Source: Gammaproteobacteria bacterium (lineage in GTDB: Bacteria > Pseudomonadota > Gammaproteobacteria > UBA4575). From it: a DNA stretch of 64,000 nt. Of this stretch, positions 4,901 through 9,413 are shown piece by piece (the stretch's first letter is position 1; each line of letters begins with the position of its first letter). Where the stretch lies: positions 32,001-96,000 of the forward strand of contig CBDCTA010000028.1 of NCBI GenBank assembly GCA_965221955.1, written 5' to 3'. The position numbers and the translations under genes were made by a program. The notes under the pieces are model-generated. The model was not told where the DNA came from and made no database searches. It worked only from the letters and a program-made list of their open reading frames with translations.

Positions 4901-5370
4901 ATTTGGATCAACCGATGGATCAAGGCATTGAAGTTAATCTAGGTGTGCCTGCGCTCATCCCGGATGATTATTTACCTGACATACATGGAAGGTTAGTCAT
5001 GTATAAACGCATTGCTAGCGCAAAAACCAGCGATGATTTAGATGATCTCGAAATCGAATTAATTGATCGTTACGGATTATTACCTGAATTTGCTAAAAAT
5101 TTATTCTTAGTCACCCATCTAAAACTGCTTGCAAGTAGCTTTGGTGTATCACGAATTGAAATGAGCCATGAAACAGCGCGCATTCATTTTGGCAAGTCGC
5201 CAAATATCGATACTACGAAGATATTAGAGCTTATTCTTGAGCAACCTGATACTTATAAGCTTGATGGCTCCGAAAAGCTCACGGTTTATACAGAAACTGA
5301 AAATATTGGGGAACGAATTGACACCATCGTGAATCTATTAAATGATCTACAATTAAAACAAGCTGCTTAA
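1915..5370 (+). CDS. mfd: transcription-repair coupling factor
   Basis: 1151 aa; CGDVGFGKTEVA, DEEQRFG, TATPIPRT, QIRGRVGRS, HDLEIRGAGELLG. Confidence 0.98.
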   Translation: MSIFNPPLPGNEHSHVTWGRTYGCSKGLALAKAVEQFNGLTLIITPDIQTAHSLESELKFFCIQGINIYLFPDLETLPYDVFSPHEDIISDRILALSALPKTQQGALIISAGTILSKLASKDFILGQTLNLKINDQLHLENFKHTLTKAGYQYVSQVVTHGEFAVRGSIIDLFPMGSNHPYRIDLFDDEIETIRIFNPETQVSTDKVGTLQVLPAREFPTDENAIKRFRQNYRIQFEGDPNKSVIYRGVSNNNLPAGIEYYLPLFCEETSTFFDFIPENSQLVLIEDIVDIAMDFENDVFYRYEQRKYDLERPPLHPKQVWISTDFFEKNLFKFNTIKLQQYELEHLHRDQYNFDAQALPTLTINSRIKDPASELIRFIESGTKKILFLAESAGRREYILDVLKGFKIIPTVVDSWPEFLSSELSLAITLGPLDDGLLLQQENIAIITESNLFGAKAKQKRKRRRQIRDAESLIKNLSDLSEGSPVVHEDHGVGRYKGLKTLSLSGTDTEFLILEYAEGDILYVPVSSLHLVSRYSGASEENAPLHHLGGDAWKNIKRRAAKRAQDVAAELLDIYSRREAKQGFQYKIDVIEFNAFCNSFPYEETPDQLKAIEDVISDMESKRPMDRVVCGDVGFGKTEVAMRAAFIAANAGKQVAVLVPTTLLSSQHFQNFSDRFADLAIEIETLSRFVPAKKQKQVLTGLEDGQVDIVIGTHKLFNSAIKFKNLGLVIVDEEQRFGVRQKEILKKMRTEVDILTLTATPIPRTLNMSLSGLRDLSIIATPPNLRLAIKTFVGTWNDGMIQEACMREMKRGGQVFFLHNEVKTIEKAAKDIQQLLPDSAIRIAHGQMPEKELEQVMLDFYHQRFSILVCTTIIENGIDIPTANTIIINRADKLGLSQLHQIRGRVGRSHHRAYAYLIAPPRPAMTADAVKRLEAIESLEDLGVGFTLATHDLEIRGAGELLGAEQSGQIHEVGFTLYNELLGRAVEALKAGEIPDLDQPMDQGIEVNLGVPALIPDDYLPDIHGRLVMYKRIASAKTSDDLDDLEIELIDRYGLLPEFAKNLFLVTHLKLLASSFGVSRIEMSHETARIHFGKSPNIDTTKILELILEQPDTYKLDGSEKLTVYTETENIGERIDTIVNLLNDLQLKQAA

Positions 5371-5382
5371 ATCAATCATTAC

Positions 5383-6045
5383 ATGCCTTACTTTAATAAA
5401 ATCTTTCTACTCTCTGTTCTACTCGCCTTTTGCAACAATGCTTTCAGCAAGGACTATATCGTTGAAATGGTGTTTTTCGCGAATATGAAAAGCAATGCGG
5501 GTTCCGTACATGTATCCAACCAAGCCGTTATACCTGATCTGGGCGGTGCAATCACCTTAAATGAAGCTTCGCAATCGAAAGGCTTTATTCCCTTAAGTTC
5601 TGACACATTTCAGTTAAGCAATAAAGCTGCTGCACTGAATAAGTCTGGTAACTATCGTGTAATTAAACATATGTCCTGGCTACAACCCGGGCTAGCAAAA
5701 GAAGATGCCATTGCAGTGCGTGTACATGCTGGCAAAAATTACAAAGATGAATTTAAAGAGCGGTCTTTTGCACAAGCAAATTTTAGTGACCGACAAGTTC
5801 CAATCAATCACCCTGTCAATGAATTAGATGGCACGGTAAAAATCGTACTTGGACGTTTTCTACATTTATACACCGACTTAGCCTATCGAAAAACATTTAA
5901 TATCTCTTCAGGAGATGCCCTAGGTAGAAACCGCGTGCTTGCAGATTTTCCAGTTAAAACACATCGTAAAATGCGCAGCAAAACCCTACATTATATTGAC
6001 CATCCCTACCTTGGAATTCTAATTGAAATCCGCCCTGCTGGATGA
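5383..6045 (+). CDS. CsiV-family periplasmic peptidoglycan-binding protein
   Basis: Signal peptide, YIVEMVFF, WLQPG, ELDGTVKI, RKMRSKTLHYIDHPYLGILI; usual position after mfd. Confidence 0.8.
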   Translation: MPYFNKIFLLSVLLAFCNNAFSKDYIVEMVFFANMKSNAGSVHVSNQAVIPDLGGAITLNEASQSKGFIPLSSDTFQLSNKAAALNKSGNYRVIKHMSWLQPGLAKEDAIAVRVHAGKNYKDEFKERSFAQANFSDRQVPINHPVNELDGTVKIVLGRFLHLYTDLAYRKTFNISSGDALGRNRVLADFPVKTHRKMRSKTLHYIDHPYLGILIEIRPAG

Positions 6046-6052
6046 GTGAGTC

Positions 6053-6162
6053 CATGGATGTGAGCGCAGGACGACGTGCATGGATGCACTAGTGTCTCGG
6101 GAGACAGGATGTAGGGAGCGACCGCACGAATATGAGATCCATCAGGAATGATGCAACTGATT
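6053..6162 (+). repeat. left inverted repeat with nested CATGGATG-type hairpin insert
   Basis: 6127-6162 matches the reverse complement of 8598-8633 at 31/36 nt; TGTGAGCGCA also shared; nested hairpins GTGCATGGATGCAC and TGTCTCGGGAGACA. Confidence 0.75.
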
Positions 6163-6177
6163 AAAGATCTTTATTTA

Positions 6178-6209
6178 AAATGACCGCTTTCAGTCAATAG
6201 CAGTCATTT
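6178..6209 (+). repeat. 32-bp palindromic cassette-boundary site R1
   Basis: AAATGACCGCTTT-CAGTCA-ATAGCAGTCATTT. Confidence 0.85.
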
Positions 6210-6576
6210 ACGTTCTTGCTGACTGGGACCAATAATCGAGCTCGGCGATAATGTAATTAGCTACGGCTTCCTCAATTGAATTAAATTCAATTCGTTTTTC
6301 TGGATTCTCAAATAGCCAAATTTCATTGGATTCCGGAACCAGTACCCACCCACTAGATGTTCGTTTGTCCTCACAAAATTGAATCCAATCGTCAACATAT
6401 CTACTTTCTTTTCGTATCTCCTTGACAAGATCCTCTGGAACAACCATTTCTCGAAGGCTTTTGTAATGTGTTTGGTCGATTGCTTTTCGTAAAGATATGC
6501 CCTTACCACGAATCGACACATCTCGGCCAATCGAAAGAATATTTCTCAGATCCTCGCTTTGTGCTTTGGCTGGCAT
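6208..6576 (-). CDS. hypothetical protein (cassette ORF 1)
   Basis: 122-aa ORF; TAA stop overlaps R1. Confidence 0.7.
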   Translation of the reverse strand: MPAKAQSEDLRNILSIGRDVSIRGKGISLRKAIDQTHYKSLREMVVPEDLVKEIRKESRYVDDWIQFCEDKRTSSGWVLVPESNEIWLFENPEKRIEFNSIEEAVANYIIAELDYWSQSART

Positions 6577-6676
6577 GGCGTCTTACAATTAATTAAAGCG
6601 CATAAACTAAATTCTAATATGTTTTTAAGTGACAGAAATGTATTGCAATTGAAACCTTATATTTATACAGAATCTG

Positions 6677-6708
6677 CAACGTTCGCTTTGGGTCGAATGC
6701 AGTCGAAA
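6677..6708 (+). repeat. 32-bp site R2 (degenerate)
   Basis: CAACGTTCGCTTT-GGGTCG-AATGCAGTCGAAA. Confidence 0.7.
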
Positions 6709-6710
6709 TA

Positions 6711-7025
6711 TTATTTTGAATCATACATGGCATTATCATAAAGGTGGTGAAACATATCTTCTGTCAACTCAGGACAAATCCCTAGAATTGCTTTCATAAA
6801 ATCATCCTTCTCTATCTCCTTGCCCCAACGCTTAAATGATAACTCCCATAAGGCTTCATTCATTTTTACCCCTACTTTTATTGCTTCATCAATTTCTGTA
6901 GCGGAATAATTTGAATAATTTTGAAGTAGTATTGCTTTGGCTTCATCAAGCTTTCCTCTACGACTCAACCAACATGCATCAATATGAATGTTATTAAAAC
7001 TATTGTCGTATCCAAGTCCACTCAT
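6711..7025 (-). CDS. hypothetical protein (cassette ORF 2)
   Basis: 104-aa ORF filling the R2-R3 interval. Confidence 0.7.
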   Translation of the reverse strand: MSGLGYDNSFNNIHIDACWLSRRGKLDEAKAILLQNYSNYSATEIDEAIKVGVKMNEALWELSFKRWGKEIEKDDFMKAILGICPELTEDMFHHLYDNAMYDSK

Positions 7026-7035
7026 ATCTTCAACT

Positions 7036-7067
7036 TTATGTACGCTTTGGGTCGTTAGTGATCATTT
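7036..7067 (+). repeat. 32-bp site R3
   Basis: TTATGTACGCTTT-GGGTCG-TTAGTGATCATTT. Confidence 0.8.
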
Positions 7068-7375
7068 ATCCTTATCTTTGAGGACATAATTAGAATTAAA
7101 CCTACGATTAGGCTAATGATAAAAATTATAAGTGAGAAGGGTCTTTCTAACACCCAAAAAATTAATCTTTGCAACTCTTGCCAATCCATATCAAGTAATT
7201 TTGTGAAGTCAATATTTAATTTTTGGAGAACTTCATAAAACCGCAATGAAAACCACTCCCCATACTTAATCCAAAAATAACCTTGGTAAGCTAGAATCAC
7301 TAAAGTTGCGAAGAAGCCTGCACTAATAATAAATATTCCAGCATCACTTATTTTTTCCGATTGTTTAGTTCTCAT
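7055..7375 (-). CDS. hypothetical two-TM membrane protein (cassette ORF 3)
   Basis: 106 aa, two hydrophobic segments; stop lies inside R3. Confidence 0.7.
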   Translation of the reverse strand: MRTKQSEKISDAGIFIISAGFFATLVILAYQGYFWIKYGEWFSLRFYEVLQKLNIDFTKLLDMDWQELQRLIFWVLERPFSLIIFIISLIVGLILIMSSKIRINDH

Positions 7376-7464
7376 GTTAATGCAATTAAAATATTAGAAT
7401 CTTTTTCCCAGTATTGTTTATTTATCGTTTTGTTCAGCTTGAATGATCAGATTAGCCTAACGTT

Positions 7465-7496
7465 AAATGTCCGATTAGGGTCGATAGCGGTCATTT
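7465..7496 (+). repeat. 32-bp site R4
   Basis: AAATGTCCGATTA-GGGTCG-ATAGCGGTCATTT. Confidence 0.85.
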
Positions 7497-7797
7497 ATTG
7501 ATATGTGAAATATTCAAACTCTCGATCTCTCGCAAATTGGGTTTTGCATAATTCATAACCCTTGTCCCATGCAGACGTGTACAAATCATCTTTTAAATAC
7601 GCCTCGCTTCGTTTAAAGGTTGACATAAAATTGCCTGCAACCTCCCAGCCACTGTTGCAACCATCTGTATAGCCTTGCTTATATGCCAATGGTGTATTCT
7701 CAGGTAGTGTATTTCTGTATTCATCATAGGCACCATAGGGGTCATTAGCACAAGAAATAATCATAACGATTAATATTGTGATAATTATATGTTTCAT
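7495..7797 (-). CDS. hypothetical lipoprotein (cassette ORF 4)
   Basis: MKHIIITILIVMIISC lipobox-like leader; TAA overlaps R4. Confidence 0.75.
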   Translation of the reverse strand: MKHIIITILIVMIISCANDPYGAYDEYRNTLPENTPLAYKQGYTDGCNSGWEVAGNFMSTFKRSEAYLKDDLYTSAWDKGYELCKTQFARDREFEYFTYQ

Positions 7798-7821
7798 ATA
7801 AATAAATGATATTCAGTTTGT

Positions 7822-7853
7822 AAGTGTCCACTTTCGGTCAATAACGGACATTC
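7822..7853 (+). repeat. 32-bp site R5
   Basis: AAGTGTCCACTTT-CGGTCA-ATAACGGACATTC. Confidence 0.8.
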
Positions 7854-7880
7854 GTTATTTAAATTTTTATTCTCAATTAT

Positions 7881-7918
7881 TGCATCATCTTGGTGCTCAG
7901 ATGCAACATGATAGTGCA
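7881..7918. promoter_or_regulatory. tandem NtrC-type binding sites
   Basis: TGCATCATCTTGGTGCT (7881-7897) and TGCAACATGATAGTGCA (7902-7918) versus consensus TGCACCA-N3-TGGTGCA. Confidence 0.75.
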
Positions 7919-7992
7919 GCTTCAATTGCGCACTAGCTAAAGTCTTTACCTTTTCAATTATAAGTATCTAATAACATTGAAATAGTAGGTAC

Positions 7993-8008
7993 TGGCATAA
8001 CTTGTGCA
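7993..8008 (+). promoter_or_regulatory. sigma54 promoter of cynS
   Basis: TGGCATAACTTGTGCA = GG-N10-GC; RBS GGAGG at 8031-8035. Confidence 0.75.
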
Positions 8009-8042
8009 TTGAATTGTTGTTATTTGTTATGGAGGAAATGAA

Positions 8043-8528
8043 ATGAACGAAATAATGACAGAACCAGTATGTGTGGTAAATAAAGCCATGTCCAAAGAAG
8101 AAATGACCGATTTAATCATTTCTGCAAAAAAAACAAAGGGGCTTTCATGGAAATCTATAGCAAACGAATTGAATGTTGGAGAGGCTTGGATTGCCTCAGC
8201 CTGCCTTGGAATGAATAGTACATCAGAGGTAATTGCAAATAAACTTTGCGATCTCCTCGAATTAGACGACAGAGTATGCACCCTGCTACAAGAGTACCCT
8301 CATAAAGAATGGGCTAAAGCAATCCCTCAAGACCCAGTTATCTATCGACTTTATGAAATTGTCGGAGTATATGGTGACACTATTAAAGAAATCATTGCTG
8401 AAAAATTTGGCGATGGAATTATGAGTGCTATTGATTTTTCAATGGACATCGACAAAGAGGAAAATCCAAAAGGCGATCGTGTTGTGATTACACTTAATGG
8501 TAAATTTTTAAAATATACATCGTGGTGA
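8043..8528 (+). CDS. cynS: cyanate hydratase (cyanase)
   Basis: DPVIYRLYE, EKFGDGIMSAIDF, GDRVVITLNGKFLKY motifs. Confidence 0.96.
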   Translation: MNEIMTEPVCVVNKAMSKEEMTDLIISAKKTKGLSWKSIANELNVGEAWIASACLGMNSTSEVIANKLCDLLELDDRVCTLLQEYPHKEWAKAIPQDPVIYRLYEIVGVYGDTIKEIIAEKFGDGIMSAIDFSMDIDKEENPKGDRVVITLNGKFLKYTSW

Positions 8529-8552
8529 TTATTGGACTAGATGAATAATTAC

Positions 8553-8584
8553 AAATGTCCGCTTACGACTCAAAGCGGACATTT
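8553..8584 (-). repeat. 32-bp site R6 (inverted relative to R1-R5)
   Basis: Reverse complement AAATGTCCGCTTT-GAGTCG-TAAGCGGACATTT. Confidence 0.85.
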
Positions 8585-8597
8585 TAATTAAAAATAG

Positions 8598-8652
8598 AAT
8601 CGGTTGCATCATCCTTGATGGACATCATATTCGCACATCCATGCGCTCACAC
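8598..8652 (-). repeat. right inverted repeat
   Basis: Reverse complement GTGTGAGCGCATGGATGTGCGAATATGATGTCCATCAAGGATGATGCAACCGATT matches the left copy. Confidence 0.75.
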
Positions 8653-8672
8653 ATTTGGGTCGCATGCAGGAA

Positions 8673-9413
8673 TCACAAATTCGCAACTACAGAACTCAAT
8701 ATTGTTTTCACTAAAGCCATTCCCTTTTCTATTGCTTGCTCAATTTCTTCCATAGTAATTTCTTGATTGGTTTTACCTGCAGCCCAATTAACGCATAATG
8801 CGCAACACGCATAATGCAAACCTAGTTCTTTCGCTAACGCCGCTTCTGGCATCCCTGTCATACCGACAATGTCGCAGCCATCTTTTTCCATGCGATTAAT
8901 TTCTGATGCAGTTTCCAGCCGTGGACCTTGAGTGGCACCGTAAACACCACTTTGGTGTACATCGATATTTGAATGGGTCGCAGCATTTAATAGCTTTTTT
9001 CTAAGTGCTTCATTATAAGGATTTGTAAAATCAATATGGGTAACTTCAGATAAGTCGTCTTCGAAAAAAGTATGCTGTCGACCATACGTGTAATCGATAA
9101 TTTGGTCTGGAATGATAATTTTCTCTGGTGGAATGTCTTTATGTATCCCCCCTACTGCTGCCACTCCTATCACATCAGCCACTCCTAAACTTTTTAATGC
9201 CCAGATATTTGCACGGTAATTAATTTTATGTGGAGGAATAGTGTGATCATTCCCATGTCTCGCTAGAAAAACGACTTCATTTCCAGAAAGTTCTCCACTA
9301 ACGAGTGGCGCGCTCACTTCACCATATGGCGTCTCAATCGAATGAGTTTCGGTAATTGAAAGCTCATTGATGGCAGTAAGCCCTGTCCCTCCAATGATGG
9401 CAAGTTTTGTCAT
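8673..9413 (-). CDS. mtnP: S-methyl-5'-thioinosine/MTA phosphorylase
   Basis: IIGGTG, RHG, HKINYRANIWAL, QGPRLET, GMTGMPE, VNWAAG. Confidence 0.9.
   Translation of the reverse strand: MTKLAIIGGTGLTAINELSITETHSIETPYGEVSAPLVSGELSGNEVVFLARHGNDHTIPPHKINYRANIWALKSLGVADVIGVAAVGGIHKDIPPEKIIIPDQIIDYTYGRQHTFFEDDLSEVTHIDFTNPYNEALRKKLLNAATHSNIDVHQSGVYGATQGPRLETASEINRMEKDGCDIVGMTGMPEAALAKELGLHYACCALCVNWAAGKTNQEITMEEIEQAIEKGMALVKTILSSVVANL

Follow-up and report, generated by a model that had tools for sequence, protein, structure and literature searches.

Palindromic repeats at gene ends bracket a cassette-like array between csiV and mtnP in a gammaproteobacterium

How did five small genes, separated by six related palindromes, come to lie between the housekeeping genes csiV and mtnP of a gammaproteobacterium (lineage UBA4575), and what part do the palindromes play? 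The block in question spans positions 6178–8584 of the window, by which we mean the whole 64,000-nucleotide stretch analysed here (GenBank assembly GCA_965221955.1, contig CBDCTA010000028.1, positions 32,001 to 96,000 of the forward strand). An earlier note on this DNA had proposed a local system of cassette capture and shuffling. The block is a cassette-like array, neither an integron nor a dif array, its gene content differs among relatives, and at other loci of the genome homology breaks at such sites; instead of a local system, however, we found one locus of a genome-wide family that crosses class boundaries. Units of this family are located at the ends of genes, where they flank modules that hold one or two genes, and wherever related DNA was comparable, homology breaks at the units. 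We give an about even chance to the explanation that the six sites are decayed members of a high-copy palindrome family, resembling repetitive extragenic palindromic (REP) sequences and bacterial interspersed mosaic elements (BIMEs) without their REP-associated tyrosine transposase (RAYT), and that the family acts as recombination joints for self-contained modules.

The source assembly (G000; 2.69 Mb, 38.6% GC, 29 contigs labelled C1–C29, estimated contamination 4.3%) was scanned, as the earlier note had proposed, with a weight matrix first built from the six window sites and then rebuilt iteratively from the genome-wide family. The first matrix gave 370 matches of at least 12 bits versus 13 in a shuffled genome, and shuffled loci amounting to 533 kb yielded zero matches at our main site threshold of at least 25 bits. 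The six window sites are not due to chance. They belong to a family of 175 sites at 25 bits or more and ~190 at 15 bits or more, so that the supposed local system is a set of ~175–190 copies at gene ends throughout the genome, with members also across Proteobacteria. A scatter independent of gene boundaries, which would have spoken for a simple repeat or terminator, was not what we observed. By crude longest open reading frame (ORF) calls, two of the 175 sites lie inside genes compared with 81% of 2,000 random positions, and 104 lie within 70 bp of a gene 3′ end. In 90 of 116 cases the neighbouring gene and the matrix orientation are on opposite strands. The sites fall into 46 clusters: 15 sites stand alone, 14 clusters are pairs and 6 are triplets, and the remaining 11, each of at least four sites, together hold 114. 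The largest have 24 sites each, on C5 and C23, and 65% of sites sit in variable arrays. A logo of 173 sites with 60-bp flanks displayed conservation over ~30 bp only, around the core ATGTCCGCTTTGGGTCGTTAGCGGtCAT in a family consensus that begins (A)ATGTCCGC; information drops to 0.2–0.4 bits in the three positions beside the core and to ~0–0.3 bits farther out. A DNA uptake sequence was considered and rejected, because single arms occur at background frequency outside the sites.

Each unit is an imperfect palindrome of 28–32 bp in which 9-bp arms, ATGTCCGC(T) and its complement, enclose a 12-nt centre. The 13-6-13 layout first suggested for the sites has to be replaced accordingly by a conserved block of 28–30 bp with nine paired positions per arm. 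Two types of unit exist: in type A the centre is TTTGGGTCGTTA and the right arm creates a T–T mismatch, making the arms unequal, and in type B the centre is TTTCGGCCAATA and the arms are symmetric. Across 171 distinct sites, positions 3–11 pair with 30–22 in a 9-bp stem. Seven of the nine stem pairs are Watson–Crick in 82–92% of these sites, the other two in 48% and 53%. Pair 6/27 is T–A in 78 sites (type B) and T–T in 72 (type A), and pair 8/25 is C–G in 83, C–A in 41, and T–G in 32. Compensatory changes in the stem are rare, which argues that the sequence itself is conserved, beyond a mere ability to pair.

Units in the large arrays form doublets of A, linker, and B, with start-to-start spacings of 59, 71–73, 82–83, and 93–94 bp (38 pairs). 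Read in gene direction, the order is gene, B, linker, A, next gene. Among 32 aligned composites, a gene ends within 80 bp before B in 26, and a gene starts 10–43 nt after A in 22. The linker in these composites retains GGTTGGAATCAAT, followed by a variable stretch and then TAAAAT running into the A unit, and the two motifs read as a putative −35/−10 pair. Promoter-like pairs were present in gene direction in 21 of the 32 and in reverse in 12, with a mean of 10.2 in shuffles. B can also pair with A across the whole composite, giving one extended imperfect hairpin (z −2.4 on one strand and −3.2 on the other). The matrix calls both units of a composite co-oriented, but B is near-symmetric and its orientation is hence ambiguous.

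At other loci of the genome, variants and paralogs lose homology to one another at the sites. The regions C14:1-19227 and C23:1-27587 have flanks 99.0–99.5% identical, and the cassettes they enclose (1.5 kb versus 11 kb) are unrelated. A further 1,035-bp module in C14, encoding an HxlR regulator and a flavodoxin-like protein, lies between two sites; C23 has a single hybrid site there, its left arm corresponding to one C14 site and its centre to the other. The pair C10:1-12356 and C29:123675-138671 is similar, with flanks 98.7–99.7% identical around 1.39 kb versus 4.0 kb of unrelated cassettes and a break of homology at the outermost sites. For paralogous cassettes at separate loci, similarity extends no farther than the bounding sites (C5/C26 86%, C5/C17 77%, C5/C11 97%). 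The linkers outside these three pairs belong to different classes, which indicates that site, gene, and linker assort independently. In the two informative cases the crossover maps close to where the centre meets one arm. Between the C14 and C23 variants, the 12-nt centre of one B site is inverted, which is what hairpin or cruciform formation would allow. Cargo of the arrays includes truncated globins, DsrC, M23 peptidases, a Rieske protein, HSP20, isochorismatase, Usp, two GNAT acetyltransferases, a SnoaL-like protein, and orphans. Joins in community contigs numbered only two and, with short sides of 21–30 letters, are not reliable.

The csiV–mtnP locus was likewise compared across relatives, as had been proposed, and its gene content differs among the 14 genus members. 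The gap between the two genes in these relatives ranges from 67 bp (G011) to 3.9 kb (G007), and family sites are present at the locus only in G004 (four), G005 (four), and G003 (at least one; the contig ends there). A tblastn search with the five window cassette proteins placed none of them at the csiV–mtnP locus in any relative. The flanks are stable: csiV is present in 14 of 14 genus relatives at 58–80% identity, and mtnP adjoins hpt and nagZ in all 13 relatives whose examined stretch extends that far. The gap in G002, G006, G008, G009, G012, and G013 contains an ordinary GC-rich terminator after csiV and, past it, a small conserved ORF on the opposite strand whose C-terminus resembles a PEP-CTERM sorting tail. 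This arrangement may be an older state of the slot.

How far the family extends was examined within the class by means of a 21-position pattern with at most one mismatch, the reversed pattern serving as control. Within the genus 13 of 14 members carried the pattern and within the family 19 of 24 did, as did 1 of 16 genomes belonging to other families in the class; the control gave 0 matches. An exact scan of one genome per species returned at least 118 stretches. Among the matches listed, carriers in Alphaproteobacteria were Pseudolabrys, Xanthobacteraceae, Hyphomicrobiales, Maricaulaceae, Kiloniella, and Sphingomonas; in Betaproteobacteria, Burkholderiales and Comamonadaceae; and in Gammaproteobacteria, Coxiellaceae, Lysobacter, Frateuria, and Woeseiaceae, in addition to a Candidatus Udaeobacter genome. 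We examined 80 of these (at least 118) loci, with GC contents of 38–66%: 78 had a site of at least 25 bits and 31 had three or more sites, with 0 in shuffles. High-GC loci share the consensus ATGTCCGCTTTGGGtCAaaAGCgGACAT, with the same two types in the same order. Five alpha- and betaproteobacterial carriers contained 68–567 matches per genome, near-palindromic units possibly counting on both strands, with 0 for the reversed pattern. A phylum sample of 400 genomes contained 42 with a match (control 0), mostly few per genome and in some 10–47. The motif was also detected on plasmids: an IncFII plasmid of Klebsiella and a plasmid of Pantoea, the latter with its copy between convergent genes. Short matches occur in 874 of 5,426 complete E. 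coli genomes, each of them individually weak.

One E. coli lambdoid prophage carries two related palindromes, each after GCTAGC, at ~5001–5032 and 7203–7232 of the locus. They flank two hypothetical genes between a DUF977 gene and hokD, in the early-gene region. The complete chromosome of relative G019, with 155 motif matches, displays site orientation in blocks: plus at 0.13–0.43 Mb, minus at 0.60–1.02 Mb, and plus at 1.64–2.69 Mb. These blocks probably follow gene orientation relative to replication.

Within the window, all six of the related 32-mers reported earlier were recovered where they had been placed, at 6178, 6677, 7036, 7465, 7822, and 8553 (inverted), and the arrangement described around them held. 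One gene lies between each pair of neighbouring sites (ORFs of 122, 104, 106, and 100 aa on the minus strand and of 161 aa on the plus strand), and the 3′ end of each gene abuts a site in the same relative orientation. Pfam identifies the 161-aa product as cyanate lyase (cynS) and assigns the other four to no family. The array does split the housekeeping run mfd–csiV / mtnP–hpt–nagZ, as csiV is separated here from mtnP and the two are 67 bp apart in G011. The slot is bounded on the left by the conserved csiV-like gene (5383–6045, plus strand; PF10972, E 1.3e-33) and on the right by the conserved mtnP-like PNP_UDP_1 phosphorylase gene (8673–9413, minus strand; PF01048), after which Pfam places a phosphoribosyltransferase.

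Site 1 (6178–6209, plus; 41 bits) has a B-like centre (CAGTCA), forms a DNA hairpin of −5.6 kcal/mol (z −4.2), and marks the 3′ end of the 122-aa ORF (6208–6576, minus). Site 2 (6677–6708, plus) is a weak, decayed A-type copy of 15–18 bits (fold z −2.0) and is followed by the 104-aa ORF (6711–7025, minus), a cassette that is covered, with few differing letters, by contigs from a second, independent metagenome run (X2). Site 3 (7036–7067, plus; 38 bits) has an A-type centre (GGGTCG) and decayed arms, with no significant hairpin (z +0.5); it precedes the 106-aa ORF (7055–7375, minus). Site 4 (7465–7496, plus; 43 bits, fold z −1.5) is a hybrid of an A-type centre and a B-type right side (ATAGCGG), next to the 100-aa ORF (7495–7797, minus). 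The 100-aa cassette has a 72% DNA match at G019:C1:298682-299024, ~0.5 kb from family sites at 297162 and 298134. Three window cassettes, that of the 122-aa ORF among them, had no DNA match in 40 genomes of the bacterial family. Site 5 (7822–7853, plus; B-like, 38 bits, fold z −1.2) stands at a divergent junction, between the starts of the 100-aa ORF and of cynS (8043–8528, plus; PF02560 and PF21291). Site 6 (8553–8584, minus; 46 bits), at the 3′ end of cynS, is a nearly perfect palindrome, with 12-nt arms that are 100% complementary, a TTTT tail, and a hairpin of −12.8 kcal/mol (z −7.5). Folded as single-stranded DNA, only sites 6 and 1 clearly beat shuffles; the other four are decayed in fold.

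The cynS gene is common in the bacterial family but at other loci. The copy in G002 matches the window gene at 84%, including the upstream region as far as the site, and a partial second copy in the source genome (C20:17178-17385, at a contig end) is 80% identical to it. The closer match to another genome than to the C20 copy suggests that window cynS was acquired.

Both ends of the array carry a copy of the 94-bp class of composite, which has a distinct 62-bp linker followed by a degenerate outer unit and which occurs at array ends, always by the 3′ end of a converging housekeeping gene. The left terminal linker (6046–6177, minus) is an inverted, diverged copy with insertions that reaches from the csiV stop codon to site 1. 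It aligns with linker copies on C23, C10, and C29 and with window positions 8545–8700, and related copies sit after csiV in G003, G004, and G005. The right terminal linker (8585–8676, plus), inverted relative to the left one, ends in a degenerate outer half-site overlapping the mtnP stop codon. We rejected the interpretation of this pair as transposon terminal inverted repeats, since the same linker lies at a gene 3′ end at every other copy. Most simply, the convergent csiV and mtnP genes each carry their own 3′-end element. The linker core (8598–8650) has many copies in relatives and occurs in many community contexts: summed contig depth was 39, with 33.2 in its own bin, and the bins either side had 2.0–5.3 or none, with loose ends on both sides. 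The 94-bp-class linker was not found in the alphaproteobacterial loci examined. Its copies at window 8598–8650 and on C23, C10, C29, and C22 contain a small hairpin in which the stem varies (GCAAC...GTTGC versus GCATCA...TGATG) and the loop retains CTCCTT or TCCT, resembling an anti-Shine–Dalgarno sequence; the other strand has AAGGAGG inside the hairpin.

We hypothesize that the palindromes, or the composites, are mobile but non-autonomous and reach gene ends through an enzyme other than IntI or RAYT, of which no obvious form is encoded in this genome. Once placed, the units may act as portable joints for the insertion, deletion, and exchange of modules, either via that spreading enzyme or via short-homology recombination. 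Units of ~30 bp and composites of ~110 bp are 80–93% alike, and exchange between them could equally, on present data, be enzyme-driven or depend on short homology. The B hairpin would lie at the 3′ end of the mRNA and the linker would offer its promoter-like pair to the next gene, a combination which suggests that every module is transcribed as a self-contained unit. Copies at the ends of housekeeping genes, blooms in single lineages, and arm conservation across classes are the grounds on which we infer a sequence-specific factor and a route of spread. The window array would be an old insertion of five modules between the 3′-end elements of two convergent housekeeping genes, which may since have lost linkers and most of its palindromic symmetry.

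Several observations weigh against this explanation. No enzyme was identified, so dispersal and exchange both have to be deduced, and no circle, excision product, or fixed crossover nucleotide was seen in the assembled contigs, the only material at hand. Sites are so alike that most breakpoints resolve no finer than to a site or its edge. The C14/C23 and C10/C29 pairs may be segmental duplications in one genome and not strains, a reading to be set beside the contamination estimate. The placement counts rely on the crude gene calls. A consensus scan flags few hairpins as terminators and few linkers as promoters: the C5 array region contained 24 promoter-like sites where 34.8 were expected (one C5 linker was flagged), and five terminator-like sites where 5.1 were expected, one or two of them family units. 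Four of the six window sites, those at 6677, 7036, 7465, and 7822, fold poorly. Finally, the likeness to REP families is one of form only, and the known families are lineage-specific and tied to RAYT.

A recombinase or HUH enzyme encoded elsewhere had been suggested as the driver. The genome encodes only XerC, XerD, a P4-like integrase (on C29), and a prophage serine integrase. The recombinase proposal is unproven, and the comparison with tyrosine-recombinase sites is an analogy only. IntI (TIGR02249) was below cut-off in five of the six carriers of the bacterial family that were searched (G000, G019, G004, G002, and G010), and the best match in G000, at 83 bits against a cut-off of 265, is XerD. 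The sixth carrier, G015, scored 483.5 bits. No family site is present in the first 20 kb of its IntI contig, from 7 kb before the gene to 12 kb after, and a simple repeat search of the region revealed no obvious repeated attC. In this relative of another genus (G015:C29:1-8018), small co-oriented ORFs point away from IntI. The Y1 (HUH) transposase and RAYT family PF01797 had zero matches in the same five genomes and one in G015; it is lacking in four of five alpha- and betaproteobacterial carriers, complete genomes included, and the single copy in the fifth is not flanked by sites. IS110, rve, and RVT_1 had no match in G000, and neither did Y2_Tnp, for which control genomes were equally silent. 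Rfam has no family matching the window block or three arrays.

Individual candidates were also set aside. Retro-copying of mRNAs was rejected: module boundaries resemble transcript ends, yet G000 has no reverse transcriptase match. The 305-aa recombinase by the largest array is housekeeping XerD, 98% identical in G014 and G011; it is present twice in the assembly because the locus was assembled twice. The only recurrent family among neighbour genes in the 80 cross-phylum loci, judged by eye, is a periplasmic substrate-binding protein, which is cargo. Genes between oppositely oriented sites encode HSP20, isochorismatase, Usp, and GNAT proteins, none of them DNA-mobility enzymes. The large serine recombinase on C26 is a prophage integrase, located beside a terminase, a DUF2924 protein, and a methylase, and was not found in G014 or G001.

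The family is nearest to REP, BIME, and REPIN (paired REP) elements in form and to integron arrays, clusters of attC sites lacking integrases (CALIN), and pdif modules in behaviour, and it fails a defining feature of each. Like REP-type elements, as portrayed in the parts of the reports consulted, it consists of imperfect palindromes of 20–40 bp that exceed 100 copies per genome and lie outside genes, most often at their 3′ ends (PMC2817692, PMC3116915, PMC3337134, PMC3733652). Two unit types joined by fixed-length linkers recall BIMEs, and a doublet folding into one long hairpin recalls REPINs, as these are described in the same parts of that literature. REP families there are lineage-specific so far and tied to RAYT (PMC2817692, PMC3116915), whereas RAYT is lacking in five of six family carriers and four of five alpha/beta carriers here and one core is common to three proteobacterial classes. 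The units have no conserved GTAG or CGTC tag, their flank logo is flat, and they cluster in arrays of variable cassettes; in S. maltophilia and P. syringae the abundant GTAG repeats are, in the consulted text, restricted to core-genome regions (PMC3733652).

Similarity to integrons and CALIN lies in co-oriented, small, mostly orphan genes each with a structured repeat, in strain-variable content and similar cargo, and in one two-sites-to-one difference (C14/C23) that resembles excision or integration. In contrast to them, no array has IntI beside it, R and L boxes are missing, single units are only 28–32 bp, and the arrays are small and spread over many loci instead of one platform. Integron cassettes rarely contain promoters according to the sections consulted (PMC4889954), whereas the linkers here carry promoter-like motifs, and the family occurs in Alphaproteobacteria. 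The pdif modules, in the portions consulted, are single-gene modules bounded by 28-bp sites and reshuffled between replicons (PMC6449649, PMC13141974, PMC7399989), and the present modules share the single genes, the site length, and the reshuffling. The sites differ from pdif in being unlike the genome's own dif-like site, co-oriented, chromosomal, and numbered in hundreds. A miniature inverted-repeat transposable element would have terminal inverted repeats, a target-site duplication, and descent from an IS element; the two units of the composite can pair as inverted ends, and the genome has no rve, IS110, or Y1 transposase match.

A phage moron is a gene that has been inserted between two others and brings along a promoter-like element and, downstream, a stem-loop. 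As a self-contained unit the module is closer to a moron than to a promoterless integron cassette, and the E. coli prophage palindromes, lying either side of two hypothetical genes, recall the module boundaries of lambdoid phages. To our knowledge, no single conserved terminator or joint sequence common to morons of different hosts has been described, nor have chromosomal arrays of 10–25 morons. Exchange of Neisseria minimal mobile elements relies on homology in conserved flanking genes. Their slots between two conserved genes hold different whole-gene cassettes, as does csiV–mtnP, but the breakpoints here are at dedicated repeated palindromes inside the slot. A text search of the literature with site strings of 10–13 letters returned unrelated matches only. 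The strings are absent from the main text of PMC3733652, its supplements, which may list relevant REP families, being outside the scope of the search. A concept search for non-integron palindrome cassettes returned nothing relevant.

Among competing explanations, a dedicated integron-like system of the kind proposed in the earlier note is in our judgment unlikely. A gene and its site would be excised as a circle and integrated at other sites by a site-specific recombinase or by an HUH enzyme, which would belong to a family not yet recognised and be either encoded elsewhere or present only transiently. Regular arrays of up to 24–26 sites with co-oriented small genes, single sites between genes in arrays of the window type, arms conserved in sequence, and a fixed order of the two site types that gamma and alpha carriers share all agree with this explanation. 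So do cargo typical of chromosomal integrons (GNAT, SnoaL-like, Usp, HSP20, globins, orphans) and the one hybrid site in C23 versus two flanking the extra C14 cassette, the product expected of excision or integration. No candidate enzyme, however, was found for it. The serine integrase is not found in two of five other carriers, the array beside xerD is not conserved (four of nine genomes), and no circles were seen, though contigs could not show them. The 15 lone sites of 175, with 28 more in 14 two-site clusters, many of which are an A–B composite at one gene end, fit a spread of palindromes.

Another possibility is passive hairpins: the units would be 3′-end or terminator hairpins moved with genes by horizontal transfer, turnover would reflect ordinary homologous or illegitimate recombination in variable islands, and the palindromes would have no causal role in it. 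The placement at gene 3′ ends, the Pantoea plasmid unit between convergent genes, like a bidirectional terminator, the inverted central 12 nt of one B site, as in hairpin loops, and the failure to find a mobility enzyme are consistent with this. We nevertheless consider it distinctly unlikely. Arms of 8–9 bp are identical in genomes of 38–66% GC from three classes, and structure alone would permit the compensatory changes of which few were seen. Most units are without a T-run, and one or two of ~24 C5 sites were flagged as terminator-like. Blooms of up to 567 matches per genome and patchy presence within one family need a spreading mechanism, and all comparable breakpoints are at units.

Modules driven by XerC/XerD, like pdif of Acinetobacter, with the 28-bp core as an 11-6-11 Xer site, are very improbable. 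The conserved length of 28 bp and the unequal arms of type A suit such sites, XerC and XerD are the only tyrosine recombinases common to all carriers, and the largest array starts ~0.7 kb upstream of xerD. However, the arms of the canonical dif-like site at C4:59807 have no sequence in common with the family, module-flanking sites are co-oriented and not alternating, and arrays lie by xerD in four of nine genomes, this one counted, the position being missing in the other five, G019 with its 155 matches included. Least credible of all are degenerate attC sites in a CALIN left by a lost integron, which the array layout, the attC-sized hairpin of the B–linker–A composite (~105–115 bp), and the true IntI of G015 might recall, but RYYYAAC and GTTRRRY end boxes are present in 0 of 32 composites in either orientation, IntI is absent from five of six carriers and has no family site in the 20 kb around it in G015, and the family is abundant in Alphaproteobacteria, 243 genomes of which contained no integron, In0, or CALIN in the consulted part of a covariance-model survey (PMC4889954). 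By these criteria the sites are neither recognised attC nor dif sites, the identification which the earlier note had named as fatal to its proposal.

If the joints are active recombination sites, the family would represent a second widespread route to single-gene capture and shuffling besides integrons. The route would operate in bacteria without integrons, including Alphaproteobacteria, none of whose 243 surveyed genomes had one (PMC4889954), and would reach enterobacterial plasmids and prophages. A bolder reading, to which we give a real if minor chance, is an integrase-independent gene-cassette system across Alpha-, Beta-, and Gammaproteobacteria, plasmids, and phages. The two-type 28-bp joints would there be acted on by an as yet undiscovered enzyme that recognises their sequence or hairpin, or by a universal host enzyme that has been hijacked, and this enzyme would excise, integrate, and disperse single-gene transcription units. 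Lineages reported to lack integrons, such as Alphaproteobacteria, would in that event have integron-like gene capture. Even read conservatively, the results show that a REP-like family can persist without RAYT, that its core sequence can be common to several classes, and that the family marks accessory-gene turnover between co-occurring strains. The 28-bp core is in addition a simple handle for finding variable gene cassettes in metagenomes.

Two further loci deserve mention. The dif-like 28-mer at C4:59807 (minus strand) lies ~4 kb from a small cluster of family sites at C4:63650-65788, and this proximity suggests that the cluster is near the replication terminus. The prophage-like block at C26:80000-90000 encodes the large serine recombinase together with DUF2924 and DUF5681 proteins, a terminase large subunit, and an N6/N4 DNA methylase, and its recombinase is 70–76% identical in G010, G011, and G019.

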